A program made the translations under genes and the position numbers. DNA of 64,000 bases, from assembly GCA_945870865.1 (NCBI GenBank), contig CAMBTO010000003.1:11478-75477 (forward strand), read 5' to 3'. How positions within the stretch are numbered: the first letter of the stretch is position 1; each line of letters begins with the position of its first letter. This DNA comes from Klebsiella pneumoniae (GTDB taxonomy: Bacteria > Pseudomonadota > Gammaproteobacteria > Eutrophobiales > Eutrophobiaceae). The notes under the pieces are model-generated. The model did no database searches. It was not told the DNA's origin and worked only from the letters and a program-made list of their open reading frames with translations. Of this stretch, positions 25,455 through 48,433 are shown piece by piece.

Positions 25455-25463
25455 AACGTAGGC

Positions 25464-30556: not shown

Positions 30557-30688
30557 GGCTCAATCACAGGATAAATGGCCATTCTGACGCCCGCCAAGCT
30601 AGACCCCGCCGGGGGGGGGGAGGACAGGCGACAGGCAAACGCCAGAATGACTCAATCACTATTGTAGGCATGTTGTGTGACAGGCTGA

Positions 30689-31978: not shown

Positions 31979-32748
31979 CGCTTTACCTCGTTGTTCAGGA
32001 TTTTGGGGTGTGGGAAGAACGGTGTCTTTTTCAGCCATAGCTTCAGCGCCTGCCAGTAGATCGCGCTGATGACCTTCAGTGTCATCAGTGGATAATTAAT
32101 CAGTACCCGCGCGAGGTTCCACGCCGTGATCGGCATGGCCTCAAGATCCATCTTCGCTGTGAATACCTTGCCGTCCTGTTCAAATGTATCCATGTTGACA
32201 TGCAGCTGCCTGCCAGGTGCCGACAGGGACCATTCGTAATGCTGGTCCATTGGCATGAACGGCGAGACGTGAAACTGTTTATCAAAGCTGAAGCGATGAA
32301 GCAACCGGTTGTTACAGGAGTTGGCACAATCCAGCACATAACAATGGGTCTCGTTCCAGGGGGTGTTATGCACCTCGGCGACAATAAAGCGCAGGTCCCG
32401 AACCTGCTCATCCCAACAATAATAGAAGCTGACCGGGTTCATGCAGATACCAAAATAACGCAGATGTGTCAGCAGTCGCACAGCACCGGTGTGCTGTTTG
32501 CCGGTCCGTTCCAGGATCAATTGCCGTATGGCGGTATCGAGCGGCACGTTTGGGTCACCATAATGATCCGCACGCCTGAACCACGCCAGCGCAGGTCTGC
32601 GCGCAGACCAGAACGGCACGCCCTCAAACAATTGCTGCAGCTCAGCCAGATCCAGATACATCTGGAACAAGTTGTAATGAAAACCGTGATAACGCGGCTG
32701 TAGGCGAAAATGGCTGACGCGTCCATGATAGATCGCGCTGTATTTCAT
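31975..32748 (-). CDS. DUF1365 family protein
   Basis: 257 aa. The N-terminus is [33 protein letters not shown], the family's typical opening. It is overlap-coupled to both neighbours. Confidence 0.8.
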
Positions 32749-33995: not shown

Positions 33996-34942
33996 GCGGA
34001 CTTCGCCCTGGCTTCCTGCATGACAGACACCGGAACCGGTCGCATGTCACTCACCAGTCCGAGCATCGCCATCAGGCGCAGTATCAGGTAACTGATATCG
34101 ATCTCCCACCAGAAGAATCCCTGCCGGGTGGATGCAGGGTAACGATGGTGGTTGTTGTGCCAGCCTTCGCCAAGCGTCAATAGCGCCAGCAGCGCGTTGT
34201 TGCGACTGTGATCAGCGGTGTTGTAACGTCTGCTGCCAAAGCGATGTGCGAGTGAGTTTATCGTGTAGGTAACGTGGTAGAGCAAGATGGTCGAGATGAA
34301 AAATCCCCAGACCAGCATCTGTGCGCCGTTGGTTTCAAGTGCAGGATACAGATTGTCCACTAACATACCACCGTAATAACAGGCTATGGCCAGCAGCAGG
34401 AATGGTAACCAGTGTAGCGCCTCGACCAATCGCAACTCCGGATACCGCAACAGATCATTGACCTTGTCACTACGCGCCGCAAAATGGCCTTTTTTCAGGA
34501 ACCATAACATATGGCTCTCCAGCATACCCTTGTTCGGACTGTGAGGATCATCCGACTGGTCGGAATTGAGGTGATGATGACGGTGATGGCTGGCCCACCA
34601 TACCGGCCCGCGCTGCCCGGCAGTACACCCGGCCACCGCAAACAAGAACTGCATGCGACGTGATACCTTGTAGATGCGGTGCGAGAAATAGCGGTGATAA
34701 AACGCAGTGATGAAAAGCATGCGTAGCAGATACAGGGCAACACAGACAACTACGGCGACCAGGCTGGTCCCGGTATAGAGAACGCCGGCGATACCCAGAT
34801 GTAAGGCCAGAAACAGACCCAGCCGCAACGGTTCGATCTGGTTGCTTTCCTCTGCAGGCAGGTTCGCATACAGCGACCTGTCATTCAGCAGCCAACGTTT
34901 GAGCCGGCCAACCGGGGAGATACTTTCTGCATGTACAGACAT
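33992..34942 (-). CDS. Membrane acyl-CoA/acyl-lipid delta9-type fatty acid desaturase
   Basis: The start is taken at MSVHAES (34942), because the longer ORF overlaps the kinase gene. Three His boxes are present: HRYFSHR, HHRHHH and HNNHH. Confidence 0.9.
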   Translation of the reverse strand: MSVHAESISPVGRLKRWLLNDRSLYANLPAEESNQIEPLRLGLFLALHLGIAGVLYTGTSLVAVVVCVALYLLRMLFITAFYHRYFSHRIYKVSRRMQFLFAVAGCTAGQRGPVWWASHHRHHHLNSDQSDDPHSPNKGMLESHMLWFLKKGHFAARSDKVNDLLRYPELRLVEALHWLPFLLLAIACYYGGMLVDNLYPALETNGAQMLVWGFFISTILLYHVTYTINSLAHRFGSRRYNTADHSRNNALLALLTLGEGWHNNHHRYPASTRQGFFWWEIDISYLILRLMAMLGLVSDMRPVPVSVMQEARAKSA

Positions 34943-35048
34943 TCGTGCAATCTGCTCGTTATTTATTATTCGAATTGTGAGAGAGTGACCGTGAACGGTG
35001 TGTGCAGCAGGTGTGAAAGTTAGGTGAAATCCAGGGCGGAGTTGGTAA

Positions 35049-36338
35049 TTACCCCACGGTGCCCATCGGGAAGGAAATCGTGACCCGGGTGCCACGGTCG
35101 AGTTCGCTCTCAATCTGTATCGGCCAGTGAAACCGGTCTGACAACATCTTGACGATGGTCAGTCCGACCCCATAGCCGCCGCGCTGCTTGTGTTGGCCGC
35201 GTTGAAACGGACGGAACAGTGTGCCCATCTGCGTTTCGGGGATGCCGATGCCGCTGTCCTCGATGACCAGATCGGTGCCGTTGATAGTGATGCTGATCTC
35301 GCCCTCGTCGGTATAGGAAAAGGCGTTGCGGATGATGTTGCCGATCATGACTGACAACACTTTGTCTGAGGCGACCACGTTCAGATGGTTATGGGCCACG
35401 TAGCTGATTTTTATCTGCTTGTCCTGTAACAGGCTATCTGCACGGTCAATTTCCTCACTGACGATATCGTTGACACTGACGTGAACGGCCGAGAGCATCT
35501 TTTCCGATTCGCGTGCCAGTAGTAGCAGCGTCTCTATCAGTTCTTCCATGTCCTGTGCATTGCGGCGGATACGCTCGGTCTGTTTGCGACTGCGCTCATT
35601 CAGAGTGGTGTCATTCAGCAGCATTTCCGAGGCCAATTTTATAACCGTTATCGGGCTGCGCAGTTCATGACTGGCATCGCGGGTGAAATTACGTTCGCGT
35701 TCAATAAACAGGACGATACGGTCGGACAGGCCGGACAGGGCATCAGACAGTAACTTCACTTCGCGATTGGTGTTTTTCACCAGCGACTGTTTAAGTGTGT
35801 CGGCAAACTCCTCGCTGCCAGGATCCAGGCTTTCCACCTCGCGGGCAAGCTTGATGATGGGTGATACCGCGCGTGATGAAAATCGGTAGGCGATCCAGCT
35901 CGACAGGTAGATGACAAACAGGACGACCAGCAGCGGTAACATGCCGAACAACAGCGCCAGATTGCCGACCTGTTTGTTGTCGAATTCCAGATACAGGCGC
36001 TTGCCATTATGTTCGGTGACATAGGTGGTTGTCAGAGTGTCTTGCTGGTTTTGTAACTTGTGGAAGCCGTTGGAGAGACCGTTCAGATAGTCCGGCAGTG
36101 GGTCACCCGGTTGCAGGTGCCCGGTCAGATTATAGGTATTGGCGCGACTAACATTAGGCTCTTGATCATACAATTGCCAGAAATGGTTGGCCTCTTCCTG
36201 CAGGGCGCGGCGGATGAGGATGTCACTGACCACAAACCGTGCGGCATAGATACTCGAAATGGCGACCAGACTGATCAGCCCGGCCTGAATCAGAAACGCC
36301 TGCCACAGCTGCTGACTAATCCCCGAGCGGTTCTTCAT
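35049..36338 (-). CDS. Sensor histidine kinase (2 TM, HAMP, HisKA, HATPase_c)
   Basis: 429 aa. It has the H-box ASHELRSPIT, the N-box IIRNAFSYT, G1 DSGIGI and G2 GGYGVGLTIV. Confidence 0.9.
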   Translation of the reverse strand: MKNRSGISQQLWQAFLIQAGLISLVAISSIYAARFVVSDILIRRALQEEANHFWQLYDQEPNVSRANTYNLTGHLQPGDPLPDYLNGLSNGFHKLQNQQDTLTTTYVTEHNGKRLYLEFDNKQVGNLALLFGMLPLLVVLFVIYLSSWIAYRFSSRAVSPIIKLAREVESLDPGSEEFADTLKQSLVKNTNREVKLLSDALSGLSDRIVLFIERERNFTRDASHELRSPITVIKLASEMLLNDTTLNERSRKQTERIRRNAQDMEELIETLLLLARESEKMLSAVHVSVNDIVSEEIDRADSLLQDKQIKISYVAHNHLNVVASDKVLSVMIGNIIRNAFSYTDEGEISITINGTDLVIEDSGIGIPETQMGTLFRPFQRGQHKQRGGYGVGLTIVKMLSDRFHWPIQIESELDRGTRVTISFPMGTVG

Positions 36339-37032
36339 CGGATCGTGACAGGCTGTAGCCGGAATTCTGGATTGTGTGCAGCAGTTGCAGTCTGAACGGT
36401 TTGTCGATCGACTTGCGCAGGCTGTACATATGACTACGGAGTGTATCGCTGTCCGGGAGGATATCGCCCCAGATTTGTCTTTCGATCAGTCGGCGGCTGA
36501 CCACGCGCGGCGAGGCCTGCATCAGGACTTTCAGGATCTGCATGCCGATCGGTGTCAATTTCAGTTTCTGGTTGCCACGGGTCACCGTCATCGTGCCGGT
36601 GTCAAATTGCAGATCCTCCACCCGTAATACTTCCGGACTGACCAGGCCCTGTTGACGGCGTATCAGCGATCGTATGCGTGCAGCGAGTTCGCGTATATTA
36701 AATGGCTTGACCAGATAATCGTCCGCACCGGTGTCGAGACCCGCTATCTTGTTTTGCAATGTGTCACGTGCAGTCACGATCAGAACCGGCGTTGTACGTC
36801 GGGCCTCATTCCGCAACTTGCCGAGCACCTCGATGCCATCCATGCCGGGCAGGGACAGGTCGAGAATAATTACATCATAATCGTTGGTGACGGCCAGATG
36901 CAGGCCGGTCACGCCGTCAGCGGCATAGTCCATCACATAACCATCGGACTCCAGATATTCACAGACCATGTCGGCGATATCGTGGTGGTCCTCAATAAGC
37001 AACAAATTATGTTTTTTATCGGCAGTTGTCAT
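36316..37032 (-). CDS. OmpR/PhoB-family response regulator
   Basis: 238 aa. The receiver domain has DVIILDLSLPGMDG and LIVTARD. A winged-helix output domain follows (LKLTPIGMQILKVLM, GYSL). Confidence 0.92.
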   Translation of the reverse strand: MTTADKKHNLLLIEDHHDIADMVCEYLESDGYVMDYAADGVTGLHLAVTNDYDVIILDLSLPGMDGIEVLGKLRNEARRTTPVLIVTARDTLQNKIAGLDTGADDYLVKPFNIRELAARIRSLIRRQQGLVSPEVLRVEDLQFDTGTMTVTRGNQKLKLTPIGMQILKVLMQASPRVVSRRLIERQIWGDILPDSDTLRSHMYSLRKSIDKPFRLQLLHTIQNSGYSLSRSDEEPLGD

Positions 37033-37161: not shown

Positions 37162-38463
37162 ATGAATATATTCTGGTTTCGACGTGACCTGCGGCTGGAT
37201 GACAACGCCACCTTGTACCAAGCCTTGCAGGCCGGTTCGGTATTGCCGGTCTTTATTTTTGACAGTGATATCCTTGATCTGCTGGAAGACCGGGACGATC
37301 GACGCGTCAGTTTTATCCATCAGCAACTTACACTGATCAAGTCGCAACTTGAACAGGCTGGCAGTACGCTGCTGGTTATGCATGGCCGCCCGCTGGACGT
37401 GTTCGCAAAGCTACTCGCCCTGCATCGTATTGAAACTGTGTATGCCGGCAATGATTATGAACCGTATGCGCGTGAGCGTGACCGGGAGGTAGCTGGGCTG
37501 TTGCAAGCGCACGGTGCACAACTGGTGCTGGTGAAGGACCATGTCATCTTTGAGCAGGATGAAATACTGAAGTCCGACCATACGCCGTATCTCGTCTACA
37601 CCCCTTACATGCGTGCGTGGAAGCGCAGGTATCAACAGGAAACCCCCGCCGCGTATGCCACGCAGGATCTGCTGGACGGTTTACTGGCGGAGGTACCCGC
37701 CGTGATGCCTACACTCGAACAAATTGGTTTTCAGCGAGTGGACAATCCGGTACCGGATCCCCTGCTGGACCCGCAGTTGATCCGCATCTATCACCTGCAT
37801 CGCGATTTCCCGGCACTGGATGCAACCAGTCTGATCGGGCCGCACCTGCGTTTTGGTACGCTCAGCATCCGCCGTCTGGTTGAGATGGCGGAGGATCTGA
37901 ACCCGGTCTGGATGAACCAGCTGATCTGGCGCGAGTTTTTTATACAGATATTATTTCATTTTCCGCACAGTGCGACGGGCTCGTTCCGTCGCGATTATGA
38001 CCGTATACCCTGGTGTAATAACGTTGTTGAATTTGAGCGTTGGTGTGCAGGGCGCACCGGGTTTCCGATCGTCGATGCGGGAATGCGCCAGTTGAACGAG
38101 ACCGGTTATATGCACAACCGGGTCAGGATGATCACGGCCAACTTTCTGACCAAACTGTTATTGATAGACTGGCGCTGGGGCGAACAGTATTTCGCGAGGA
38201 AGCTGCTCGATTACGAGATGGCGAATAATGTGGGTGGCTGGCAATGGTCGAGTGGTTCCGGCTGTGATGCTGCACCGTATTTCCGCATCTTCAATCCGGA
38301 CACCCAGATCGAGAAGTTTGACCCGGAGCTGAAGTATATCCGGCGCTGGATCCCTGAATTTGAAACGGCGGACTACCCGATGCCGATGCTGGATTATCGA
38401 CAGGCACGCGAACGCGCCATGTCGGTATACAAGTCTGCGCTGAAAGCCGCCGCCGCGTTATAG
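37162..38463 (+). CDS. phr: Deoxyribodipyrimidine photolyase / cryptochrome-family flavoprotein
   Basis: 433 aa. The N-terminus is IFWFRRDLRLDDN. The FAD-binding C-terminus has TGFPIVDAGMRQL..TGYMHNRVRM and GGWQWSSGSGCDAAPYFRIFNP. Confidence 0.93.
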   Translation: MNIFWFRRDLRLDDNATLYQALQAGSVLPVFIFDSDILDLLEDRDDRRVSFIHQQLTLIKSQLEQAGSTLLVMHGRPLDVFAKLLALHRIETVYAGNDYEPYARERDREVAGLLQAHGAQLVLVKDHVIFEQDEILKSDHTPYLVYTPYMRAWKRRYQQETPAAYATQDLLDGLLAEVPAVMPTLEQIGFQRVDNPVPDPLLDPQLIRIYHLHRDFPALDATSLIGPHLRFGTLSIRRLVEMAEDLNPVWMNQLIWREFFIQILFHFPHSATGSFRRDYDRIPWCNNVVEFERWCAGRTGFPIVDAGMRQLNETGYMHNRVRMITANFLTKLLLIDWRWGEQYFARKLLDYEMANNVGGWQWSSGSGCDAAPYFRIFNPDTQIEKFDPELKYIRRWIPEFETADYPMPMLDYRQARERAMSVYKSALKAAAAL

Positions 38464-39651: not shown

Positions 39652-40341
39652 ATGACTGGGGAGACTGATATGTTAAAAATGATACACGTTGTGAAAATAC
39701 TGATGATAGGCACGATAACCATTCATCTTGGTTGTGCCGCTGTCGATAAGCGACCGACCACTGAAGCTGAATACAATGCGTCCTTGCCGGGTGATGTCAG
39801 TCCGGAATCCCGGGGTCGATTGCCCATTATAAGTCGGGAGGCCCTCGATGATGCAGGCAAAGCTACCTATGATCGATATATGGCTCCGGATTCGACATCA
39901 CTTGCCGGCATACAGGGGCCGGGGGGGATCCGCTTACACGCTGGCGTCGACAAGAGCCCGACCCGAATAGACAACAAGGTCAGTGAGCTGGTGCGTCTGG
40001 TGATTGCGCGTGAAATGGATCAGAAGTTTGAATGGACCATGCATGAACCGGTCGCCCTCAAGGCCGGTCTGACCCCTGCCACTATTGATGCGATACGTCT
40101 TCGCAAATTATTGCAGGGCGTCCCGGAAATGGAGGCCTCCATCATTCAGATGGGCAGGGAAATATTTCAGGAGCATCGGGTCAGTCCGGAAACCTACCGT
40201 CAGCTTTCAAGCCATTTCGGTCCGCGTGACCAGATGGAAATCGTCGAGTTGATGAGTGGCGGCATGAACAGCTTTTTCCTGTTGTTCCTGTACGATGTTC
40301 ATCTTCCGTACGACAGACCCTCACAGTTGCCCGTAGAGTAA
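39652..40341 (+). CDS. Carboxymuconolactone decarboxylase (AhpD-like) family protein, probably exported
   Basis: 229 aa with an N-terminal hydrophobic signal ending in HLGC. The CMD-like core is ELVRLVIAREMDQKFEWTMHEPVALKAGLTPATIDAI. Confidence 0.6.
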   Translation: MTGETDMLKMIHVVKILMIGTITIHLGCAAVDKRPTTEAEYNASLPGDVSPESRGRLPIISREALDDAGKATYDRYMAPDSTSLAGIQGPGGIRLHAGVDKSPTRIDNKVSELVRLVIAREMDQKFEWTMHEPVALKAGLTPATIDAIRLRKLLQGVPEMEASIIQMGREIFQEHRVSPETYRQLSSHFGPRDQMEIVELMSGGMNSFFLLFLYDVHLPYDRPSQLPVE

Positions 40342-40446
40342 ATCTTCGCCACCTTATTCGCCTAATGGCATATTCGTTCGTTGATAGGGATAGGTGTTTT
40401 AATATGAGATGTTCAGTCATTCATCCCGGGTTAACCTAACGTGTAT

Positions 40447-40476
40447 TTGACATCCTGATCACGGAGTAAATATAGG
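40447..40476 (+). promoter_or_regulatory. Candidate sigma70-type promoter upstream of the radical SAM operon
   Basis: TTGACA (40447..40452), then 17-18 nt, then ATATAG/TATAGG (40470..40476). It is followed by the perfect 14-bp palindrome GGCCAACATTGGCC (40488..40501). Pattern match only. Confidence 0.25.
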
Positions 40477-40661
40477 GTAATACAAGCGGCCAACATTGGC
40501 CACGCGGCAAAAATTCAGCAGGCATTTGTATACACTTGTCGATGTCAGGTGATGAAGTTTTAATTCATAAGATTATTTTTATATCAACTGTAATAACCGG
40601 GCGGATCAAAGCGACTAGATACGGTTAACCCGGGATAAATCTTTATTATTAAAGGACAATT

Positions 40662-41642
40662 ATGCACGCTACCTTGCCTTTGCTGGAACGCTCTGACTTT
40701 CCGCCTATCAGTCGAGAGAGCCTCACCACCCTGCAGGTCAATCTTGGTTATAAATGCAACCAGAGCTGTCTGCATTGTCATGTGAATGCAGGCCCGACTC
40801 GTACCGAGATGATGGATACGGCAACCCTGGCACTGATCCCCGATGTCATACGTGCGCGTAATATCAGTACGCTCGACCTGACCGGTGGTGCGCCCGAATT
40901 ACATATGGGTTTTCGGGGGCTGGTGCAGTCCGCACGCCAACAGGGTGTGCATGTGATAGACCGTTGTAACCTGACCATCCTGTCCGAGCCGGGCCAGGAT
41001 GATCTGGCAGATTTTCTGGCCGTGCACAAGGTCGAGATTGTGGCCTCGTTGCCGTGTTACTCCATGGAGAATGTAGACAGGCAGCGTGGAACGGGAGTGT
41101 TCGAACGCAGTATCAGTGGCCTGCTCGAATTAAATCGACTCGGTTATGGTGTGGACGGTTCGGGGCTGCTGCTGAATCTGGTCTACAACCCGCAAGGACC
41201 GGTGTTGCCTCCGGACCAACACAAGCTGGAGGCAGACTACAAGCGTGAACTCGGTAATCGTTTTGATATCGTCTTTAATAATCTGTATGCATTGACGAAC
41301 ATGCCGATCCAGCGTTTTGGTTCGACATTGATATCGAAGGGGCAGTTTGCAGATTATATGACGTTGCTCCGGCACAATTACGCCGCCGCCAATCTGGACA
41401 ATGTGATGTGCCGTACCTTGATCAGTGTGGACTGGCAGGGGTATTTATACGATTGTGATTTTAACCAGATGCTGGGGTTGCGGGTTCCCGGCAGTTTTTA
41501 TCATGACAAACAACCACATCTGCGTGACCTGATGACTGTGGATCCGAAGGGCACACCGATCCGCGTTGCCGATCACTGTTATGGTTGTACTGCGGGTAGC
41601 GGTTCCAGCTGTGGCGGTGCGATCGCGGTCGCGACCGAATGA
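40662..41642 (+). CDS. Radical SAM/Cys-rich domain protein (ArsS-like)
   Basis: 326 aa. The radical SAM cluster motif is CNQSCLHC (CxxxCxxC). The C-terminal Cys-rich tail is HCYGCTAGSGSSCGGA. Confidence 0.85.
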   Translation: MHATLPLLERSDFPPISRESLTTLQVNLGYKCNQSCLHCHVNAGPTRTEMMDTATLALIPDVIRARNISTLDLTGGAPELHMGFRGLVQSARQQGVHVIDRCNLTILSEPGQDDLADFLAVHKVEIVASLPCYSMENVDRQRGTGVFERSISGLLELNRLGYGVDGSGLLLNLVYNPQGPVLPPDQHKLEADYKRELGNRFDIVFNNLYALTNMPIQRFGSTLISKGQFADYMTLLRHNYAAANLDNVMCRTLISVDWQGYLYDCDFNQMLGLRVPGSFYHDKQPHLRDLMTVDPKGTPIRVADHCYGCTAGSGSSCGGAIAVATE

Positions 41643-43789
41643 AAAAATGGTTGATCCTGCCGGTACTGGTGTTGCTCGCGGCGGCATTTTACTGGCTGGG
41701 ACTCAACCACTGGTTGACGCTGGAGGGCATGCAGTCGGGTATCGATCACATCCTGACAGCGCGTGAGGCGCGGCCGTTGCAGACCGCCGTAATATTTCTG
41801 GTCGTCTATGTCATGGTCACCGCGCTGTCGTTGCCGGGCGCTGTCGTAATGACACTCGTCGGAGGTGCGCTGTTCGGTCTGTGGTGGGGAACGCTGATTG
41901 TTTCGTTCGCCTCCAGTATCGGTGCATTGCTCGCATTCCTGGTCTCACGATATCTGTTGCGCGAAACCGTGCAGTCGCGTTTTGGTGATCGATTAAATAC
42001 GATTAATGCGGGGATCCAGCGCGACGGTGCGTTTTACCTGTTCAGCCTGCGGCTGATACCGGTGTTTCCGTTTTTCCTGATCAATCTACTGATGGGGCTG
42101 ACGACGATGTCCGCGTTGACCTTTTACGGCGTTAGTCAGTTGGGCATGCTCGCAGGCACGTTTGTCTATGTAAATGCCGGCACCCAGCTTGCGCAATTAA
42201 CTTCCTTGTCCGGCATACTCTCGCCCGCGATCGTACTCTCGTTCGTCTTGCTCGCGACCTTCCCGTGGCTGGCGCGGACCGGGCTGAACAGCTGGCGCAA
42301 ACATCGGGTGTATGCCCGTTGGCATCGCCCTGCAAAATTTGAACGCAACCTGATTGTGATCGGGGCAGGCGCGGCCGGTCTGGTGTCTGCCTATATCGGT
42401 GCGGCGGTGAAGGCGAAGGTCACCTTGATCGAGGCACACAAGATGGGCGGCGACTGTCTGAACTACGGCTGTGTCCCGAGCAAGACGCTGATCAAGAGCG
42501 CCCGCATCGCATACCAGATACGCCATGCGGATCGCTACGGCCTCCAGGCCGGTCAGCCCCGTTTTTCATTCCGGCAGGTGATGGCACGTATACAGCAAGT
42601 GATACGTGAGATTGAACCACACGATAGTATCGAACGTTATACTGCACTCGGTGTGGAGGTCTTGCCAGGCCATGCGCGTATTATTGATCCGTGGACAGTC
42701 GAGATTACCCTCGCCGGTGGAACGATCCAGCGTTTAACCACCCGCAGTATCATCATCGCCGCCGGGGCAGCGCCGTTTGTCCCGCCGTTGCCCGGGCTGG
42801 AACAAACCGGTTATCTGACCAGTGATACGCTGTGGGAGGCGTTGGCGAATCACGAGGTCCCACCTGAGCGGATAGTTGTACTCGGAGGGGGGCCGATAGG
42901 ATGTGAACTCGCACAGGCGTTCGCCCGACTCGGTTCCCGCGTCACGCAGATTGAAATGGGACCACGCCTGCTGATACGTGAAGATGATGAAGTCTCGCAT
43001 CTGGTGCAGCAGTCACTGGAGGCAGACGGTGTGAGCGTCCTGACCGGCCATACGGCATTGCGCTGCGAGCGCGAGGGCGATTATAAATACATCATCGTCG
43101 AACAGTCCGGCCAGACCACGCGGGTCCCGTTTAATGAACTGATCTGCGCAGTCGGTCGTGCCCCGCGTCTGGCCGGTTATGGTCTGGAACAACTGGGTAT
43201 ACCGACCAACCGTACCGTTATCACGAATGAATATCTTGAAACCCTGTATCCAAATATTTACGCGGCCGGTGATGTCGCCGGGCCATACCAGTTTACCCAC
43301 ACAGCCGCACACCAGGCCTGGTATGCGGCAGTGAACGCCTTGTTTGGCGATTTTAAAAGATTCAGGGTAGATTACAGCGTGATACCCTGGACTACATTTA
43401 CCGATCCAGAAGTGGCCCGGGTCGGACTGAATGAACAGGAGGCCGTTGAACGCGGCATCGCCTATGAACTGTCGCGCTACGAGATCAACGAACTGGACCG
43501 TGCCATCGCCGAGGGAGTGGCGTATGGGTTTATCAAGGTGCTGACCGTCCCCGGCAAGGACCGGATCCTCGGTGTGACCATTGTCGGTGAACATGCTGGC
43601 GAGTTACTGGCCGAGTTTGTGCTGGCAATGCGCTGGGGTCTGGGCCTGAATAAAATCCTCTCGACCATACATACGTATCCGACGCTGTCTGAATCAAACA
43701 AATATGTGGCCGGTGTATGGAAACGTGCACACGCGCCGCAGAAATTATTGCAATGGGTTGAGCGTTACCATCACTGGCGCAGGCAATGA
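41639..43789 (+). CDS. Fusion protein: TVP38/TMEM64 (DedA-superfamily) membrane domain + FAD-dependent pyridine nucleotide-disulfide oxidoreductase
   Basis: 716 aa. The N-terminal 230 aa or so are multi-TM and DedA-like (LIPVFPFFLINLLMG). Then come GAGAAG, the redox-active GGDCLNYGCVPSK and a C-terminal dimerisation domain (HTYPTLSE). It starts in an ATGA overlap with the upstream gene. Confidence 0.85.
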   Translation: MKKWLILPVLVLLAAAFYWLGLNHWLTLEGMQSGIDHILTAREARPLQTAVIFLVVYVMVTALSLPGAVVMTLVGGALFGLWWGTLIVSFASSIGALLAFLVSRYLLRETVQSRFGDRLNTINAGIQRDGAFYLFSLRLIPVFPFFLINLLMGLTTMSALTFYGVSQLGMLAGTFVYVNAGTQLAQLTSLSGILSPAIVLSFVLLATFPWLARTGLNSWRKHRVYARWHRPAKFERNLIVIGAGAAGLVSAYIGAAVKAKVTLIEAHKMGGDCLNYGCVPSKTLIKSARIAYQIRHADRYGLQAGQPRFSFRQVMARIQQVIREIEPHDSIERYTALGVEVLPGHARIIDPWTVEITLAGGTIQRLTTRSIIIAAGAAPFVPPLPGLEQTGYLTSDTLWEALANHEVPPERIVVLGGGPIGCELAQAFARLGSRVTQIEMGPRLLIREDDEVSHLVQQSLEADGVSVLTGHTALRCEREGDYKYIIVEQSGQTTRVPFNELICAVGRAPRLAGYGLEQLGIPTNRTVITNEYLETLYPNIYAAGDVAGPYQFTHTAAHQAWYAAVNALFGDFKRFRVDYSVIPWTTFTDPEVARVGLNEQEAVERGIAYELSRYEINELDRAIAEGVAYGFIKVLTVPGKDRILGVTIVGEHAGELLAEFVLAMRWGLGLNKILSTIHTYPTLSESNKYVAGVWKRAHAPQKLLQWVERYHHWRRQ

Positions 43790-44481
43790 TGCAAACCACA
43801 CCCGGCGAACGACTGTCGATTATAGTGCCGATGTTGAATGAGGCAGAGGTCTTGCCGCAACTGCTGGCACAACTGTCCGTATACAGCGCACGTGGTTGCG
43901 AGATAATGCTGATCGATGGTGGTAGCACCGATGATTCCGATACACTGGCACGCAAGGCCGGTTTTACTGTCCTCAACGCGCAGCGAGGCCGGGCAAGACA
44001 GATGAACGCGGGTGTGACATTCGCCACCGGCGACATCTTTCTATTCCTGCATGCGGACACACTGTTGCCCGACAGCGCCGATAGCCTGATTCAGGAGGCA
44101 CTCCGCAAGAATAGGGCGGGATGGGGGAGGTTCGATGTACAGATTACAGGGGAGTCGCTGTGGTTACCCGTCATAGCCAGCATGATGAATCTGCGCTCAC
44201 GCCTCAGTGGCATCGCTACCGGCGATCAGGCGATCTTTGTGCAACGTGATCTGTTTAATGAGGCCGGTGGATTTCCTGATCAACCGTTGATGGAAGATAT
44301 AGAACTCTCAAGACACTTGAAAGAATTTTTACCACCGATCCGCCTGCGTGCCAAAGTGACCACCTCGGGTCGACGCTGGGAGACACGCGGCGTCATCCGG
44401 ACTGTAATACTAATGTGGCGTCTGCGACTCGCCTATTATTTAGGCGTGCCTGCTGAATCGCTGGCGCGGACCTACCGATGA
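43786..44481 (+). CDS. Glycosyltransferase family 2 (rSAM/selenodomain-associated transferase 2 type, by memory)
   Basis: 231 aa. Motifs: LSIIVPMLNE, LIDGGSTD and LFLHADTLLP. ATGA overlaps occur at both ends. Confidence 0.78.
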   Translation: MMQTTPGERLSIIVPMLNEAEVLPQLLAQLSVYSARGCEIMLIDGGSTDDSDTLARKAGFTVLNAQRGRARQMNAGVTFATGDIFLFLHADTLLPDSADSLIQEALRKNRAGWGRFDVQITGESLWLPVIASMMNLRSRLSGIATGDQAIFVQRDLFNEAGGFPDQPLMEDIELSRHLKEFLPPIRLRAKVTTSGRRWETRGVIRTVILMWRLRLAYYLGVPAESLARTYR

Positions 44482-45101
44482 AGATCCATCGTATCGTCAT
44501 CTTCGCTAAGGCGCCGCGTGCCGGTTACGCCAAGACTCGCTTAATTCCGGCACTCGGTGCCGACGGTGCCGCCCGACTGGCCAGACGCATGCTTACGCAT
44601 ATGGTCAATCAGGCGCTGGATGCCGGTGTGGGTCCGACGGAATTATGTATGACACCGGCTGACGATCCGACCTGGGAGGAGACACGGTTGCCGCTTCATC
44701 TAGGAAGAACCGACCAGGGTGAGGGCGATCTTGGCGAACGGATGGCGCGGGCCAGCCAACGGGTTACCGGGGAGGGTGAAGCCATCATTCTGACAGGTAC
44801 AGATTGTCCGCAGCTGGATACCATTTGTCTGCAACAGATCGCAACAGCACTGGAGCAATCGGATGTGGCCATCGTACCGACGACCGATGGTGGATATGCC
44901 GCACTCGGACTGAACCGGTTTGATCCGCTGTTATTCAGTGATATCCGCTGGAGTACCGATACGGTAGCTGCTGAAACCCTGCGCCGAATAGCCACACTGC
45001 AATGGTCGGTGAGCACATTACCGGTGTTACATGACATAGATGAGGTCGCTGATCTTGCTTTGTTACCGGCGGACTGGCCGGAGTATGTACGGAGCGAGTA
45101 G
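44478..45101 (+). CDS. DUF2064 family protein (nucleotidyltransferase-like; rSAM/selenodomain-associated transferase 1 type, by memory)
   Basis: 207 aa. The N-terminus IVIFAKAPRAGYAKTRLIPALG is the family hallmark. TGTDCPQL and DGGYAALG are also present. Confidence 0.75.
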   Translation: MKIHRIVIFAKAPRAGYAKTRLIPALGADGAARLARRMLTHMVNQALDAGVGPTELCMTPADDPTWEETRLPLHLGRTDQGEGDLGERMARASQRVTGEGEAIILTGTDCPQLDTICLQQIATALEQSDVAIVPTTDGGYAALGLNRFDPLLFSDIRWSTDTVAAETLRRIATLQWSVSTLPVLHDIDEVADLALLPADWPEYVRSE

Positions 45102-45879
45102 TTTAATGGTTGCTCAAATACCTCGCCTGTATGTCACCCTGCTGTTGTATTTAATTGCAGGCACCACGGTGGCACAGTCGCCTGCTGTTATCGTGGGTGA
45201 GTTCACCTCAGCGACAAAAATTCCCCCGGCTCCCTGGGAACTCGTGCATCTGGATAAACGCGTCGCCGCCACCCGTTATCAGGTCAAGGAATGGGACGGT
45301 GTCGTCGCGGTCGAGGCAGTCGCGGAAAAAAGTATGGCGCTGCTGGCGCGACCACTCGATATCGACCTCAATCAGACACCGGTGTTGTGCTGGTTATGGC
45401 GTGTCGATGCGCCACTACTCACGGCCGACCTGAACAAAAAGTCCGGTGATGATTATGCCGCACGAGTATACGTTTCATTCAAACTGCCGCGACAACAAAT
45501 CAGCCTCTCTACCCGCATCAAGCTGCGTATGGCACGCACGATTTATGGTGATAAGATCCCCGATGCAGCGATCAACTATATCTGGGACAACCGCTACCCC
45601 ACAGGCACCTTGCAGGCAAATGCCTACACAGACCGGACGCAGATGCTGGTGTTACAAACCGGCGCAGGGCAGGCCGGCCAGTGGGTTGCGCAACGTCAGG
45701 ATGTCCTCGCCGACGCACGTCTGGCCTTTGGCCAGGTGGACCCGGAGGCGGTACAACTCGCCATTGCCACTGATACAGACAATACCGGCGAATCTGCCCG
45801 CGCCGGGTTTGCACAGTTGCATTTTGTTGATCACACTACTCCCTGTACGGTTCCCAAGCTGGGAGGCAAACCGGAATAA
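45085..45879 (+). CDS. Secreted DUF3047 family protein
   Basis: The ORF opens at 45040. Plausible ATG starts are 45085 and 45106. The signal peptide is LYVTLLLYLIAGTTVAQS. The family call is from memory of the composition of this gene neighbourhood. Confidence 0.6.
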   Translation: MYGASSLMVAQIPRLYVTLLLYLIAGTTVAQSPAVIVGEFTSATKIPPAPWELVHLDKRVAATRYQVKEWDGVVAVEAVAEKSMALLARPLDIDLNQTPVLCWLWRVDAPLLTADLNKKSGDDYAARVYVSFKLPRQQISLSTRIKLRMARTIYGDKIPDAAINYIWDNRYPTGTLQANAYTDRTQMLVLQTGAGQAGQWVAQRQDVLADARLAFGQVDPEAVQLAIATDTDNTGESARAGFAQLHFVDHTTPCTVPKLGGKPE

Positions 45880-45900
45880 ACGACAAAAATCAGTTGCAAA

Positions 45901-45970
45901 AATGAGGGTCAGAGTAAAAATTCCTTTGTGACATTCATGATGGTGATCAATTGTTACTTTGACCCTCATT
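45901..45970. repeat. 17-bp inverted repeat (one mismatch) with 36-nt spacer after the DUF3047 gene; possible terminator or regulatory hairpin
   Basis: AATGAGGGTCAGAGTAA (45901..45917) pairs with TTACTTTGACCCTCATT (45954..45970). A T-rich tract follows. Confidence 0.45.
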
Positions 45971-46050
45971 TTCCTGCTCTTTTCCTAACGGGCCCTTTGT
46001 TAGCATCTTAGTCCTGTGCCGGAATGTTTTAAAGTAGCCGGGATTGGGGG

Positions 46051-46096: not shown

Positions 46097-46273
46097 AGGA
46101 TTGTGGCGAGGTAATTTTCCCATAGCCTGTCCTGGACGTAGACGGGACTTGATTTCTGGATAGGCCAGATGATCCCGGGTCATAAACAGGTCCGGCTTTT
46201 GACATTTACTGGGTATCCTTTGGCCAATACTGCTAAAATTCCCGTATGTCCCCTATTCAGATGTCTATACACC

Positions 46274-48433
46274 ATGTTGCAGACCGCTCCTGATATATTT
46301 TCATATCGCCAATACTGGGCCAAACGGCTGTTGCCGGCGCCGGTATTGCCGATGTCGCGCGAGGAAATGGACATCCTTGGCTGGGATGAGTGTGACATTA
46401 TAGTAGTGTGTGGTGATGCGTATGTGGACCATCCCAGTTTCGGGATGGCGCTGGTCGGGCGTTTGCTGGAGTCGCAGGGCTTTCGGGTTGGCATCATTGC
46501 CCAGCCGGACTGGACCTCGGCGGATCCGTTCCGGGTGCTGGGCAAGCCGAAACTGTTCTTCGGTGTGTCGGCGGGCAATATGGATTCGATGGTGAACCGC
46601 TATACCTCCGACCGCAAGATCCGTTCGAATGATGCGTACACACCCGGCGGTGCAGCGGGCAAGCGTCCGGATCGTGCCGTGATTGTCTATTCGCAGCGTT
46701 GCCGCGAGGCGTATCCGGGTGTGCCGATCGTGATCGGCGGGATCGAGGCCTCGTTACGGCGAATTTCCCATTATGATTACTGGTCGGAAAAGGTGCGCCG
46801 TTCCATCCTGCTCGACAGCAAGGCCGATCTGCTCGTGTATGGCAATGCCGAACGCGCCATTGTCGAGGTGGCGCACCGCATTGCTGCTGGAGAACAGGCG
46901 CGGCAGATCCATGACCTGCGGGGCACCGCCTATGTTGCGGATGTCCTGCCATCAGGCTGGGGTCAGATTGATTCGACCACACTGGATGAGCCAGGTGTGG
47001 TTGAAGCGCATACTGATCCCTATTCATTAACGCCGATGAAACCGGAGGCCGGACGCTATGATGCCACGGCAGCCGATACCAAACCTGTGCATTTTGAACG
47101 TTATCATCCCAAAGATGAATCGGCCGATACGGTCGTAAGACTGCCGGCTTATGAACAGTTGAAGGATGACCCGGTGCTGTATGCCCATGCGGCACGGGTG
47201 ATGCATCTGGAGACGAATCCGGGCAATGCGCGGGCGATTGTGCAACGGCATGGTGATCGCGATGTGTGGCTGAATCCGCCGCCAGTGCCGCTGACCACAC
47301 CGGAGATGGACCGCGTTTATGAATTACCCTACACCCGTCTGCCACACCCGGCCTACGGGCAGGAGAAGATCCCAGCCTACGAGATGATCCGGTTTTCGGT
47401 CACCATCCAGCGCGGTTGTTTCGGCGGTTGTTCGTTCTGTTCGATAACCGAGCATGAGGGCCGTATCATCCAGAATCGTTCCGAGGATTCGATATTGCGC
47501 GAGGTCGAGACGATCCGCGATACCGTGCCCGGCTTTACCGGTGTGATCTCGGACCTCGGTGGCCCGACCGCGAACATGTATCGTATTGCCTGCAAGTCAT
47601 CCGAGATCGAAAGCAAGTGTCGCAAGCCGTCCTGCGTGTATCCGGGCGTCTGTCCGAACCTGAATACGGACCACTCGGCGCTGATCCAGTTGTATCGCAA
47701 GGCGCGTGAGTTGCCCGGCATCAAGAAGATCCTGATTGCCTCCGGTGTGCGCTACGACCTCGCGGTCAAGTCGCCGGCCTATGTGAAGGAGCTGGTCTCG
47801 CATCATGTCGGTGGTTATCTGAAGATTGCGCCCGAACATACCGAGCAGGGGCCGCTATCGAAGATGATGAAACCGGGCATGGGTGCGTATGACCGGTTCA
47901 AACAGTTGTTTGATCAATATTCAAAAGAAGCGGGCAAGGAGCAGTACCTGATTCCGTATTTTATCGCTGCGCATCCGGGTACGACCGATGAAGACATGAT
48001 GAACCTCGCGATCTGGCTGAAGCAGAATGGCTTTCGCGCGGATCAGGTGCAGACCTTCCTGCCTTCACCGATGGCGCTGGCGACCGCGATGTATCACAGC
48101 GGCAAGAACCCGCTGCGCAAGGTGACCCGCACCAGTGAAAATGTACCGGTGGCGAAACAACTGAAGGTACGTCGCTTGCACAAGGCCTTCCTGCGTTACC
48201 ACGATCCGGAGAACTGGCCGATGTTGCGTGCCGCGCTGAAACGCATGGGTCGCGCCGATCTTATCGGTCCTGGCAAGCGTTGCCTGATCCCGTCCTGGCA
48301 ACCGAAGAGCGGCAGTACCACACCGATTGTGCAACCCGGCAGGCGATTCCTGACACGCCATACCGGACTGCCACCGCTGCCGGAGGTCACAGGCACGCGC
48401 CGCAAGCGGGGCAAACCCGGCAAGGATCAGTGA
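46274..48433 (+). CDS. ygiQ: YgiQ family radical SAM protein (UPF0313)
   Basis: The start is taken at MLQTAPDIF (46274). Motifs: [17 protein letters not shown] and the radical SAM segment [14 protein letters not shown] basic C-terminal tail is present. Length and layout are typical of YgiQ. Confidence 0.9.

Follow-up and report, generated by a model that had tools for sequence, protein, structure and literature searches.

What is an ArsS-type radical SAM enzyme doing in a bacterial operon that has no arsM? The question is raised by five plus-strand genes lying at 40662-45879 of a 64-kb stretch of DNA (hereafter the window, 64,000 nucleotides). A previous sequence-only reading had described them as having no known product, judged an arsenosugar role probably inapplicable since arsM is missing, and proposed an envelope-directed metabolite or lipid head group. 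We consider it probable, albeit far from certain, that these genes are a copy of a module, widespread in bacteria, for making organoarsenicals (arsenosugars or arsenosugar-lipids).

Layout and integrity of the operon

The open reading frames, all on the plus strand, span 40662-41642, 41639-43789, 43786-44481, 44478-45101 and, depending on the start, 45040 or 45106 to 45879. Direct reading of the sequence bore out the five same-strand genes and the three 4-nt ATGA start/stop overlaps reported previously (41639, 43786 and 44478). No junction type is commoner in bacterial operons, so these overlaps are unsurprising alone. The stronger evidence for a single unit is the conservation of gene order and overlaps in relatives, together with the undivided homology block described below. 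With full-length reading frames, conserved motifs and dN/dS ratios of 0.05-0.17, the five genes are intact, and this is a real five-gene operon.

The start of gene 5 was revised. Its longest reading frame begins at 45040 and would overlap gene 4 by 62 nt. An ATG at 45106 is placed 4 nt past the TAG stop of gene 4, with a GGAG 11-14 nt upstream, gives the signal-peptide-like N-terminus MVAQIPRLYVTLLLYLIAGTTVAQS, and agrees with a 257-aa gene call made elsewhere (P0121, 100% identical). The start is most likely 45106 rather than 45040, and therefore the fourth junction would be a 4-nt gap, with no overlap. The signal peptide announced by the sequence-only reading is kept, as a signal-peptide-like segment.

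Protein families encoded by the operon

By Pfam and NCBIfam scores, all domain assignments previously made for genes 1 to 5 were correct. Gene 1 (40662..41642, + strand, 326 aa) scored 456 bits against TIGR04167 (ArsS; cut-off 300), which places it in the ArsS/Cys-rich radical SAM family, and its C-terminal domain, DUF3641, scored 190 bits against PF12345. The CxxxCxxC motif CNQSCLHC (residues 32-39) and the Cys-rich tail HCYGCTAGSGSSCGGA (C306, C309, C317) were found as described earlier, and the tail is invariant across the taxa compared. Gene 1 is 62-71% identical at the protein level to ArsS from 80 species, and its dN/dS relative to the closest informative relative, metagenome contig L091, is 0.084.

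Gene 2 (41639..43789, + strand, 716 aa) is a fusion, as the domain scores confirmed, and the redox motif described earlier is there too. Residues 1 to ~225 form a DedA/VTT (TVP38/TMEM64) membrane domain, with 82.5 bits against PF09335, above the gathering score, and ~6 hydrophobic segments within the first 210 residues. The remainder, from residue ~235 to 716, is a class I pyridine-nucleotide disulfide oxidoreductase (Pyr_redox_2, PF07992, 194.9 bits; Pyr_redox_dim, PF02852, 103), with the redox motif CLNYGC at residues 273-278 and, close to the C-terminus, the motif HTYPTLSE. The C-terminal 480 residues have in common with MerA, dihydrolipoamide dehydrogenase, glutathione reductase and RclA the FAD and NAD(P)H domains, the CxxxxC, and a dimerisation domain with HxxxxE. 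The top NCBIfam match, NF004991, reached 481 bits, under its cut-off of 620. The nearest PDB sequences were MerA (best, E 1e-73) and dihydrolipoamide dehydrogenases. Identification as MerA was rejected: TIGR02053 gave 360 bits against a cut-off of 454, the C-terminal Cys pair is absent, and a DedA membrane domain stands at the N-terminus in place of an NmerA/HMA domain. Even between distant genera the fusion retains 70-72% identity, and its dN/dS is 0.072. Its N-terminal domain resembles the DedA/VTT superfamily in its PF09335 match and its polytopic character; this superfamily includes UptA-type undecaprenyl-phosphate translocases and the TMEM41B/VMP1 scramblases, and a Ralstonia DedA protein has been linked to selenite uptake. 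We know of no flavoprotein reductase fused to a characterised DedA protein.

Gene 3 (43786..44481, + strand, 231 aa) encodes a soluble family-2 glycosyltransferase (GT2; TIGR04283, 273 bits, cut-off 182; PF00535, 64 bits), and no hydrophobic segment was found in its protein sequence. Gene 4 (44478..45101, + strand, 207 aa) belongs to DUF2064 (TIGR04282, 196 bits, cut-off 134; PF09837, 110 bits), of nucleotidyltransferase-like (CofC/MobA-like) fold. Weaker matches were to TIGR03552 CofC (E 5.7e-14), PF01983 and PF12804, and PDB entry 3cgx, a 'putative nucleotide-diphospho-sugar transferase', was matched with E 2.7e-21. Despite its TIGR04282 name, gene 4 is closer to nucleotidyltransferases (CofC, MobA, 3cgx) than to a glycosyltransferase. 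TIGR04167, TIGR04283 and TIGR04282 are all now named "arsenosugar biosynthesis" by NCBI, so that calling the product of the locus unknown was an overstatement for three of the five genes. The TIGR04282/TIGR04283 pair, formerly rSAM/selenodomain-associated transferases 1 and 2, was defined by ArsS adjacency, and its 'arsenosugar' names come from genome context, not experiment; the window members, genes 4 and 3, both exceed the trusted cut-offs and adjoin ArsS.

Gene 5 (45106..45879, + strand, 257 aa) encodes a predicted exported protein with 230 bits against PF11249 (DUF3047). Its AlphaFold2 model (mean pLDDT 90.5) has a predicted β-jelly-roll fold. Foldseek gave weak PDB matches for this model: CFAP20-like jelly-rolls, CBM4/16/29 modules and GH12 enzymes, at query TM-scores of 0.34-0.46. 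In DUF3047, C95, C247 and the core residues of three motifs, GDD(Y), W-x-W-R and DTDNT, are invariant.

Edges of the module

The operon and its borders were delimited by comparison with L091, which has a different flank. The homology runs exactly from 40512 to 45902, stopping 23 nt past gene 5, and this 5.39-kb block is one homology unit with the same five genes, order, overlaps and upstream block (DNA identity 86%, protein identity 84-94%, 94% for the gene 2 product). The putative upstream regulatory region (40512..40661, + strand) begins where the L091 homology starts. A block of 22 nt within it, CAGGCATTTGTATACACTTGTC (~40519-40540), includes the palindrome TGTATACA and is kept at 100% identity in loci L001 and L002, where the rest of the intergenic region has diverged. 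It did not recur above chance elsewhere in the window, and was absent from more distant loci. The region matched no Rfam family, and a sigma-70 scan gave nothing above shuffled controls. At the 3′ edge, a terminator-like hairpin followed by a U-rich tract (45899..45990, + strand) has arms of 19 nt, 45899-45917 and 45954-45972, which pair with 1 mismatch and occur nowhere else in the window; the intergenic segment 45880-46168 has a folding z of -4.1. On the favoured reading, the operon has its own promoter region and a terminator-like hairpin.

Just upstream, on the minus strand, 40434..40511 holds a 26-codon remnant of a 136-aa gene, aligning in tblastn with residues 111-136 of orf136 of L091 (85% identity, E 3e-11). 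The gene is intact upstream of ArsS in L001, L002, L091 and a relative on a 192-kb contig. We read the remnant as a scar that rearrangement left at the 5′ border of the module. The operon lies between a CMD-family gene and ygiQ.

Gene neighbourhoods of ArsS

The neighbourhoods of ArsS were compared in 80 species-level loci, and also in 49 ArsS loci with at least 8 kb on each side. Among these 49, GT2 was present in 40, DUF2064 in 37, DedA in 32, the FAD domain in 31 and DUF3047 in 16. Over all 80 loci, homologues of genes 3 and 4 were found in 57 and 53 respectively. The co-occurrence of the radical SAM enzyme with GT2 and DUF2064 families, mentioned in the sequence-only reading, is confirmed. 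When four DedA-FAD fusions were examined individually, DUF2064 adjoined all of them, and GT2 and ArsS were also there in three; similarly, all four DUF3047 homologues examined adjoined the GT2/DUF2064 pair, three of them together with ArsS.

ArsM-like methyltransferases, with the four ArsM-typical Cys positions conserved, lay beside the cluster in 20 of the 80 loci, leaving about three-quarters without an adjacent arsM. In locus L054, such a gene separates ArsS from the DedA-FAD gene; at 549 bits against NF038099 (arsenosugar ArsM; cut-off 400), it is a full member of the curated family. Most others fell under every curated ArsM cut-off (~160-178 bits against 263). The ArsM-like gene directly follows DUF3047 in L049, L083, L084 and L091. 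In the genome scan it was rarer beside DUF3047-containing clusters (3/21); among DUF3047-containing contigs fetched individually, three of five had it (L083, L084 and L091, not L085 and L086). A 5′-methylthioadenosine phosphorylase (MTAP; TIGR01694, 308 bits, cut-off 275) was found in 11 of the 80 loci, and PstSCAB-, PhnCDE- or PHO4-type transporters adjoin the cluster in several. Some genomes have the cluster within metal-resistance islands that also contain mer and bufferin genes, and Mer transport genes abut it in several relatives.

L091 is again informative. Its operon continues into an ArsM-like methyltransferase, pstSCAB-like genes and an ECF sigma/anti-sigma pair, and is preceded by merR-merT-merP, whereas the window has the ygiQ and CMD-family flanks. 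Pfam and NCBIfam scans of about 49 ORFs revealed no arsM, ars or selenium gene (including selD) in the window, tblastn with ArsM-like and MTAP queries gave no match in its 64 kb, and no phosphate-type transporter gene was found there. The earlier statement that the window is devoid of arsM, ars and selenium-utilisation genes is thus right. Its corollary, that the arsenosugar role is probably inapplicable, is not supported: because ArsM-like genes adjoin the cluster in relatives (20/80 loci, L054, L091), the window copy appears, from gene context, to be the same module minus the arsM/pst continuation, and not a different pathway.

A possible route to an arsenosugar

The known reference is the arsM-arsS arsenosugar pathway of Synechocystis sp. 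PCC 6803 (Xue et al. 2017, 2019; Cheng et al. 2021). Gene 1 belongs to the same family (TIGR04167), has the same CxxxCxxC and Cys-rich tail, and is 66-67% identical to cyanobacterial ArsS (66% for that of locus L067, which adjoins an ArsM-like gene). Cyanobacterial arsS has arsM as its partner and is transcribed together with it (bioRxiv 10.1101/2022.09.23.509062), whereas arsM is absent within the 64 kb of the window. Unlike cyanobacterial arsS, the window gene is translationally coupled to the DedA-FAD reductase, GT2, DUF2064 and DUF3047 genes; GT2 and DUF2064 were absent within 10 kb of ArsS in the three cyanobacterial loci fetched, one of which (L072) has DedA and DUF547 nearby. Of the module steps, only that of ArsS, converting DMAs(III) to DDMAA, is shown by experiment, in cyanobacteria only, and a single member has been characterised biochemically (PMC13598754). 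In the literature searched, bacterial arsenosugars were reported from cyanobacteria only, with no report for proteobacteria, and genome papers only repeat the annotation. The sequence-only reading was therefore justified in stating that the proteobacterial cluster has no demonstrated product.

We infer the roles of genes 2 to 5 from fold, family-level chemistry and gene neighbourhood. Dimethylarsenite, DMAs(III), could come from an ArsM whose gene lies in another part of the genome, or from the reduction of imported DMAs(V). Gene 1 ArsS would then cleave SAM and place the 5′-deoxyadenosyl radical onto arsenic, yielding 5′-deoxy-5′-dimethylarsinoyl-adenosine (DDMAA), a reaction assigned to it because of family membership and 66% identity. 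An enzyme of the MTA-phosphorylase type, cluster-linked in many relatives and presumably a housekeeping one here, would remove adenine to give arsenoribose-1-phosphate. The DUF2064 protein (gene 4) might activate this sugar phosphate as an NDP-sugar, and the GT2 enzyme (gene 3) might move the sugar to a glycerol, glycerophosphate or phosphatidylglycerol acceptor. In the gene 2 product, a membrane domain for transport or flipping may be coupled to a cytoplasmic CxxxxC reductase that depends on NAD(P)H; tentatively, this reductase would most likely keep either the arsenic substrate or the ArsS Cys-rich tail reduced. In the weakest step, the exported β-jelly-roll of gene 5 could bind or trim the product on the periplasmic side.

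Several points count against the arsenosugar reading: arsM, MTAP, ars-resistance and phosphate-type transporter genes are all missing from the 64 kb, most adjacent ArsM-like genes in relatives are below cut-off, and the structural matches of the DUF3047 model are weak (query TM-scores at most 0.46). TIGR03169, the 'N-terminal to SelD' oxidoreductase (373 bits, cut-off 310), is cluster-linked in 21 of the 80 loci and, together with selenocysteine forms of ArsS, leaves room for another metalloid.

Alternative readings

The same chemistry might act on another soft metalloid or metal, 'ArsS' adenosylating methylated selenium, tellurium or antimony species to give a seleno- or other metalloid-sugar, or belong to a mercury context. 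The family was first defined by selenocysteine-containing members, its NCBIfam name still reads '(seleno)protein', and besides TIGR03169 a PhnD-like binding protein among the loci weakly matches a 'putative selenate ABC transporter'. The sub-cut-off scores of adjacent methyltransferases, and merR-merT-merP abutting the cluster without merA in L088 and L091, point the same way. However, DMAs(III) is the substrate of the one characterised member, the L054 cluster embeds a full member of the curated arsenosugar-ArsM family, Pst and PHO4 phosphate-type transporters are a better fit for arsenate than for selenium, selD and other selenium-utilisation genes are missing from the window, and the gene 2 reductase is devoid of the MerA Cys pair; we regard this possibility as unlikely. 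Somewhat more doubtful still is the proposal of the sequence-only reading, understood as a metalloid-free envelope metabolite or lipid head group, with an ArsS-like enzyme recruited to some other radical reaction and arsenic uninvolved in this organism. The missing arsM and ars genes, the membrane DedA domain and exported protein, the infrequency of ArsM-like genes beside DUF3047-type clusters in the genome scan, and lipid-modifying neighbours in the window (fatty-acid hydroxylase, CFA synthase and desaturase) would suit it. Yet the lipid-gene and photolyase neighbours show no conservation alongside the cluster (photolyase in 0 and fatty-acid hydroxylase in 2 of the 49 loci), the 62-71% identity of ArsS across taxa and its invariant tail argue for a single function, and the 86%-identical L091 module is physically joined to ArsM-like and pst-like genes. 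An arsenosugar phospholipid would, besides, fit the idea of a modified lipid head group directed to the envelope.

Least probable, and indeed very unlikely in our view, is that the five genes are a stranded remnant, left without substrate supply and heading to decay once arsM and pst were lost by rearrangement. Each edge bears a scar of rearrangement, the orf136 remnant (40434-40511) on one side and the break in homology (45902) on the other, which together with the absence of arsM and pst from the window speaks for it. Full-length frames, conserved motifs and low dN/dS speak against it; arsM could also sit elsewhere in the genome, and adjacency is the exception among the 80 loci. A second lineage, that of the 192-kb contig (90% identical), has the same arsM-less arrangement and the same downstream ygiQ, and therefore the configuration is stably inherited.

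Gene content and layout of the operon

ORF calls and the DNA itself show five head-to-tail genes on the forward strand, at 40662-41642 (gene 1), 41639-43789 (gene 2), 43786-44481 (gene 3), 44478-45101 (gene 4) and, in its longest form, 45040-45879 (gene 5). Junctions 1 to 3, read straight from the DNA, are 4-nt ATGA overlaps, as described in the sequence-only reading, and the motifs claimed there (CNQSCLHC, a Cys-rich tail, CLNYGC) were all found in the translated genes. The five-gene layout was confirmed, with a correction to the start of gene 5. The longest form, from 45040, overlaps gene 4 by 62 nt, and the ATG at 45106 is the better start, because it lies 4 nt past the TAG stop of gene 4, has a GGAG 11-14 nt upstream, opens a typical signal-peptide-like N-terminus (MVAQIPRLYVTLLLYLIAGTTVAQS) and agrees with the 257-aa gene call made on another contig for a 100% identical product (P0121).

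To judge from its sequence, gene 1 is a full member of the ArsS family. It matched TIGR04167 (arsenosugar biosynthesis radical SAM (seleno)protein) with 456.1 bits for a cut-off of 300, over model positions 2-303 of 303, so that the ArsS-like label it had been given on first reading held in an HMM search. The radical SAM motif CNQSCLHC (CxxxCxxC) occupies residues 32-39, the C-terminal domain is DUF3641 (PF12345, 190 bits), and in the tail, HCYGCTAGSGSSCGGA, residues C306, C309 and C317 are invariant among 20 homologues. The family comprises at least 8000 clusters; the best 120 matches listed were all at least 70% identical to gene 1, and the closest species-level matches 70-71% identical. Cyanobacterial ArsS adds the 5′-deoxyadenosyl radical of SAM to dimethylarsenite, DMAs(III), to give 5′-deoxy-5′-dimethylarsinoyl-adenosine, DDMAA (PMC13598754). 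In Synechocystis, arsM and arsS are transcribed together, and ArsS performs the first committed step of arsenosugar synthesis (bioRxiv 10.1101/2022.09.23.509062).

Gene 3, in the same operon as ArsS, matched TIGR04283 with 273.3 bits (cut-off 182). Gene 4, joined to it by an ATGA overlap, matched TIGR04282 with 196.4 bits (cut-off 134) and PF09837 (DUF2064) with 110 bits; weaker matches were to CofC and MobA-like nucleotidyltransferases, and PDB entry 3cgx, a ‘putative nucleotide-diphospho-sugar transferase’, was matched with an E value of 2.7e-21. The two had been read as a GT2 and a DUF2064 nucleotidyltransferase-like protein, and these scores bear that out. The current NCBI names of TIGR04167, TIGR04283 and TIGR04282 all include ‘arsenosugar biosynthesis’. 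Since three of the five genes are already curated in this way, and genome papers repeat the names, the operon is not a new kind of system. Proteobacterial genome papers reuse these names without any chemistry.

A membrane-bound disulfide reductase and a putative exported protein

Gene 2 joins an N-terminal VTT/DedA domain (PF09335, 82.5 bits for a gathering score of 33.9, residues 69-182) to a complete class I flavoprotein disulfide reductase (Pyr_redox_2, Pyr_redox and Pyr_redox_dim; 194.9 bits for PF07992 and 103 bits for PF02852), the same composition as recognised on first reading. A rough hydropathy scan placed about 6 hydrophobic segments within residues 1-210, as in a polytopic protein. 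The reductase part carries the redox pair CLNYGC (CxxxxC) and, near the C-terminus, HTYPTLSE, which fits the HxxxxE motif; it must face the cytoplasm, since it needs NAD(P)H. Cysteines occur only at 273, 278, 422, 476 and 503, with none in the last 60 residues. The fusion family comprises at least 8000 clusters, and proteins 70-72% identical over all 716 residues are found in Hydrogenophaga, Herminiimonas, Eoetvoesiella, Nitrosospira and Mariprofundus.

The nearest solved relative in a PDB sequence search was the mercuric reductase-type protein MerA (E 1e-73). We nevertheless rejected gene 2 as a MerA: it scored 359.9 bits on TIGR02053, below the cut-off of 454.45, and has a VTT/DedA domain at its N-terminus instead of an HMA (NmerA) domain. 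In MerA, a C-terminal vicinal Cys pair hands Hg(II) to the active site, usually together with an N-terminal NmerA; gene 2 has neither. We think that the likeliest task of its reductase is to maintain either the arsenic substrate or the Cys-rich ArsS tail in the reduced state, and the DedA part would translocate a substrate or a lipid-linked product through the membrane.

Gene 5 matched PF11249 (DUF3047) with 230.1 bits for a gathering score of 27, over model positions 2-197 of 198, and had no sequence relative among PDB structures. The structure prediction that had been suggested for this family was run with AlphaFold2 on 36 sequences, and yielded a confident β-sandwich jelly-roll (pLDDT 90.5, pTM 0.85). 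Foldseek matches to the model were weak (query TM-scores of 0.34-0.46) and comprised CFAP20-like jelly-rolls, carbohydrate-binding modules CBM4/16/29 and GH12 glucanases. The predicted fold is compatible with carbohydrate binding, without proving it. Two invariant cysteines would fit an exported, disulfide-bonded protein, and the conserved GDDY, W-x-W-R and DTDNT motifs could form a binding or catalytic site. The DUF3047 protein would then act on an exported product.

Closest relative and boundaries of the module

The closest informative relative of the operon lies on a metagenome contig (L091). There, merR-merT-merP and a 136-aa gene on the opposite strand are followed by ArsS, DedA-FAD, GT2, DUF2064 and DUF3047, and the operon goes on with an ArsM-like methyltransferase gene (346 aa), pstS/C/A/B-like genes and an ECF sigma/anti-sigma pair. 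It shares with the window a single 5391-bp block of 86% DNA identity (window 40512-45902), and no homology was found on either side of it. The block begins just before a 22-nt sequence, CAGGCATTTGTATACACTTGTC, and stops 23 nt past the stop of gene 5, at the foot of a hairpin. Directly upstream, at 40434-40511 on the reverse strand, the window retains no more than the 26 codons at the end of the 136-aa gene, which has no Pfam match and is intact 5′ of ArsS in relatives; this remnant marks a deletion or rearrangement breakpoint. From the sharp limits of homology and the remnant we concluded that the five genes and their promoter region form a discrete module, which in the window lineage is, on this sequence comparison, parted from its arsM/pst continuation. 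Since the layout without arsM, again followed by ygiQ, is also found in a second lineage (90% identical), it is inherited and no assembly artefact.

The intergenic region 5′ of the operon is 320 bp long and AT-rich. The 22-nt block, at about 40519-40540 and hence just inside the start of the L091 homology, is invariant in close relatives amid a diverged intergenic region and includes the palindrome TGTATACA; within the window it is not repeated more often than expected by chance. We regard it as a candidate operator. Downstream, the DNA folds strongly (z = −4.1), the first element being a hairpin with 19-nt arms that begins 20 nt past the stop and is followed by a U-rich tract. A dispersed REP/MITE element was rejected as the source of the downstream hairpins, the arms of which pair only with each other. 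The terminator scan, which overlooked this long-loop hairpin, returned 8 sites in the window versus 4.6 ± 2.0 after shuffling, not clearly higher, and none at the operon ends. The promoter scan gave a count below the shuffled mean, and Rfam contained no known RNA leader or riboswitch matching at an E value of 1 or better, bar a spurious miRNA match.

Neighbourhoods of ArsS genes in other genomes

Taking one genome per species, we collected 80 ArsS loci, mostly from beta- and gammaproteobacteria, plus three cyanobacteria, one Oligoflexia and two Zetaproteobacteria. The window proteins were mapped onto the 49 loci with at least 8 kb on each side. GT2 was present at 40 of these and DUF2064 at 37, so that the association of both families with ArsS, noted in the sequence-only reading, is indeed conserved. 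The DedA and FAD domains were present at 32/49 and 31/49 loci, almost always contiguous and therefore fused, and DUF3047 at 16/49.

Clustering of the remaining ORFs in and around the 80 ArsS clusters revealed several accessory families: an ArsM-like methyltransferase (20 loci), whose best matches are arsenite methyltransferase models; a 5′-methylthioadenosine phosphorylase, MTAP (11 loci; TIGR01694, 308 bits versus 275); the TIGR03169 ‘N-terminal to SelD’ oxidoreductase (21 loci; 373 bits versus 310); DUF547 (17 loci; PF04784); a nameless protein of about 350 aa with weak metallophosphoesterase matches (21 loci); and PhnCDE-like transporter genes (5-11 loci, the PhnD-like binding protein being found at 5 and the ABC ATPase at 11). 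The pairing with arsM known from Synechocystis is absent from the window; it is present in L091 and at those 20 related loci. A cyanobacterial ArsS with 66% identity to the window protein is encoded beside an ArsM-like gene.

The ArsM-like family keeps cysteines in the contexts ACC, YGCG, NCVINL and GEC, which correspond to the four cysteines through which ArsM binds As(III) or acts in catalysis. Seven adjacent methyltransferases were examined. For six of them arsenite methyltransferase models were best, yet with 160-178 bits, below the cut-off of 263. The seventh, encoded between ArsS and DedA-FAD at locus L054, scored 549 bits on NF038099 (‘arsenosugar biosynthesis arsenite methyltransferase ArsM’; cut-off 400).

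The accessory family of about 350 aa, which the window lacks, shows an invariant C-G-C motif and has no PDB relative; its Metallophos_2 matches are weak, in 9 of 12 members, the best with an E value of 1e-4. Among the 80 loci (L003-L082), it overlaps with the ArsM-like family at one locus only, and it tends to accompany DUF3047 and TIGR03169. Two pathway subtypes could account for the split between the two families, and so could phylogeny alone.

Searches in the reverse direction started from the two less characterised genes. On four long contigs, homologues of DUF3047 (55-62% identity) were adjoined by GT2 and DUF2064 in all four cases and also by ArsS in three; an ArsM-like gene followed directly in two, and an MTAP-type phosphorylase was present in two. 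DedA-FAD fusions in four genomes were adjoined by DUF2064 in all four and also by GT2 and ArsS in three, with an ArsM-like gene in two and MTAP in two. Both genes therefore belong to the ArsS cluster.

The cluster is also found alongside genes of metal and metalloid detoxification, as shown by mer/bufferin islands and merR-merT-merP contexts. Eoetvoesiella caeni (L087) and a Herminiimonas-like genome (L089), from different families of Burkholderiales, have nearly the same island around it, with a mer operon, CMD, a bufferin/MNIO locus, glutaredoxin, the ArsS cluster, thioredoxin, DsbD, DUF6969, an integrase and KfrA. The shared island suggests movement of the cluster on a mobile metal-resistance element. 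In Hydrogenophaga (L088), merR-merT-merP lead straight into the DedA-FAD gene; merR-merT-merP stand beside the ArsS/DedA-FAD cluster at 7439-11151 of L088 and 6994-12151 of L091, and no canonical merA was called in the fetched stretches of either. The DedA-FAD gene of L088 occupies the usual place of merA, and the fusion is without the C-terminal cysteines of MerA.

Genes around the operon in the window

Among about 49 ORFs over 64 kb, scanned with Pfam or NCBIfam models, there was no arsM, arsR/B/C/H or acr3, and no MTA phosphorylase, selD or phosphate-type transporter gene. The combination that defines a canonical ars resistance operon (ArsR with arsenite efflux or arsenate reductase) was likewise missing from these ORFs, and tblastn of the window with ArsM-like queries, that of L091 included, and with MTAP gave no match. 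The window is indeed free of arsM, arsenic-resistance and selenium genes, as had been noted from the sequence alone.

Upstream of the operon lie genes for a CMD-family protein, a fatty-acid-hydroxylase-like protein and a photolyase. Beyond the photolyase, on the opposite strand, come a histidine kinase and a response regulator, then a lipid-modifying and redox block, next to which the kinase-regulator pair and the photolyase lie (24729-35113 on the reverse strand, together with 35049-37032 and 37162-38463). The block encodes an SDR, an amine oxidase, an 806-aa CarboxypepD_reg/Plug outer-membrane protein, DUF1295, DUF2878, a CFA synthase, DUF1365, a second amine oxidase and a fatty-acid desaturase, and resembles photo-oxidative-stress gene sets described in other proteobacteria. 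The upstream neighbours are common to the 90%-identical relative and not to ArsS clusters elsewhere, the photolyase being found at 0/49 and the fatty-acid hydroxylase at 2/49 related loci; we therefore consider these neighbours as local synteny, outside the system. On the same counts, and as the upstream motif is not repeated near those genes, membership of the operon in a light or photo-oxidative regulon was rejected. Directly 3′, a YgiQ-family radical SAM gene (46169-48433; TIGR03904, 871 bits) is kept next to the operon only in the closest lineage and lies outside the module.

The gene just 5′ of the operon, at 39652-40341, is of the CMD/AhpD family. CMD genes recur near the cluster in L086 (a DUF3047-bearing contig), L087, L088, L089 and L091, and NCBIfam includes an ‘arsenite methyltransferase/AhpD domain selenoprotein’ fusion family. 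On these two grounds, a functional link of the CMD gene to the ArsS cluster may exist.

Proposed function of the operon

We conclude that the operon is probably an organoarsenical module of the arsenosugar type. DDMAA, the expected product of ArsS, is an analogue of 5′-methylthioadenosine, and the cluster-linked MTAP would remove its adenine by phosphorolysis to give arsenoribose-1-phosphate. The DUF2064 nucleotidyltransferase-like protein would convert this sugar-1-phosphate into an NDP-sugar, and the GT2 would transfer the sugar onto a glycerol-type acceptor, producing an arsenosugar or, if the acceptor is phosphatidylglycerol, an arsenosugar phospholipid. The steps past DDMAA are proposed because generic enzyme chemistry fits each required step and because the genes co-occur tightly. 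The individual roles of DedA-FAD and DUF3047 are the least certain parts, and our confidence in them is much lower.

The same chemistry might act on selenium or another metalloid, which we think unlikely, although the ArsS family has selenoprotein members, TIGR03169 is linked to the clusters, and most of the adjacent methyltransferases score below the ArsM cut-offs. The sequence-only reading held that the arsenosugar role probably did not apply, and pointed to an envelope-directed modified metabolite or lipid head group. An envelope metabolite free of any metalloid is contradicted by L091, where a near-identical module is joined to ArsM and Pst genes, and by the lipid-gene neighbours, which are not conserved, and we give such a metabolite only a slim chance. 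Slimmer still is the chance that the window copy is a stranded, decaying remnant: all five reading frames are intact, dN/dS versus L091 is low (0.084, 0.072, 0.169, 0.054 and 0.168 for genes 1 to 5), and the same layout was inherited in the second lineage.

Within the arsenosugar-type module, a more specific and rather speculative role can be drawn for gene 2. The DedA-FAD fusion might, at long odds, be a membrane-coupled reductase that turns methylated arsenicals from the pentavalent state, MAs(V) or DMAs(V), into the trivalent one and lets bacteria without arsM build arsenosugars from scavenged DMAs. The DedA part would import or position the arsenical, the CxxxxC flavoprotein would reduce it with NAD(P)H, and DMAs(III) would be passed to the translationally coupled ArsS. 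Such a reductase would account for the many clusters, that of the window included, that have no arsM of their own; these bacteria would take up environmental DMAs and use it to make arsenosugars or arsenosugar lipids. Heterotrophic proteobacteria would in that case be a source of such compounds that has gone unrecognised. We know of no bacterial gene assigned so far to the reduction of pentavalent methylated arsenicals.

In aquatic food webs, major arsenic species include arsenosugars and arsenosugar phospholipids. To our knowledge, only the ArsM and ArsS steps of their synthesis have experimentally assigned genes, in cyanobacteria only, and in the literature that could be searched bacterial arsenosugars are reported only from cyanobacteria. 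Operons of this type occur very widely among beta- and gammaproteobacteria, and bring candidates for later enzymes (DUF2064, GT2, the DedA-FAD reductase and the exported DUF3047 protein) together in one co-translated unit. If the model is right, non-photosynthetic bacteria would be producers of complex organoarsenicals, and tractable heterotrophs would allow direct tests of the pathway's other steps. The window copy itself adds little that is unique; its own contribution is a natural arsM-less variant with clean boundaries, suited to tests of a module running on exogenous methylated arsenic.

Minor observations

On one DUF3047-bearing contig (L085, 1-12000), DUF3047, MTAP, GT2 and DUF2064 occur without an ArsS within 9 kb. 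Near this cluster are genes for an EgtD-like protein (Methyltransf_33), an FGE-sulfatase (EgtB-like), DinB_2 and an AIRS_C-domain protein, which hints at ergothioneine- or selenoneine-type chemistry linked to the cluster in some lineages. Far from the operon, at 11162-12150 on the reverse strand of the window, an EAL-domain ORF (11162-11761) and a MASE1-domain ORF (11491-12150) overlap in different frames; from their sequences, they look like a single sensor phosphodiesterase gene split by a frameshift.
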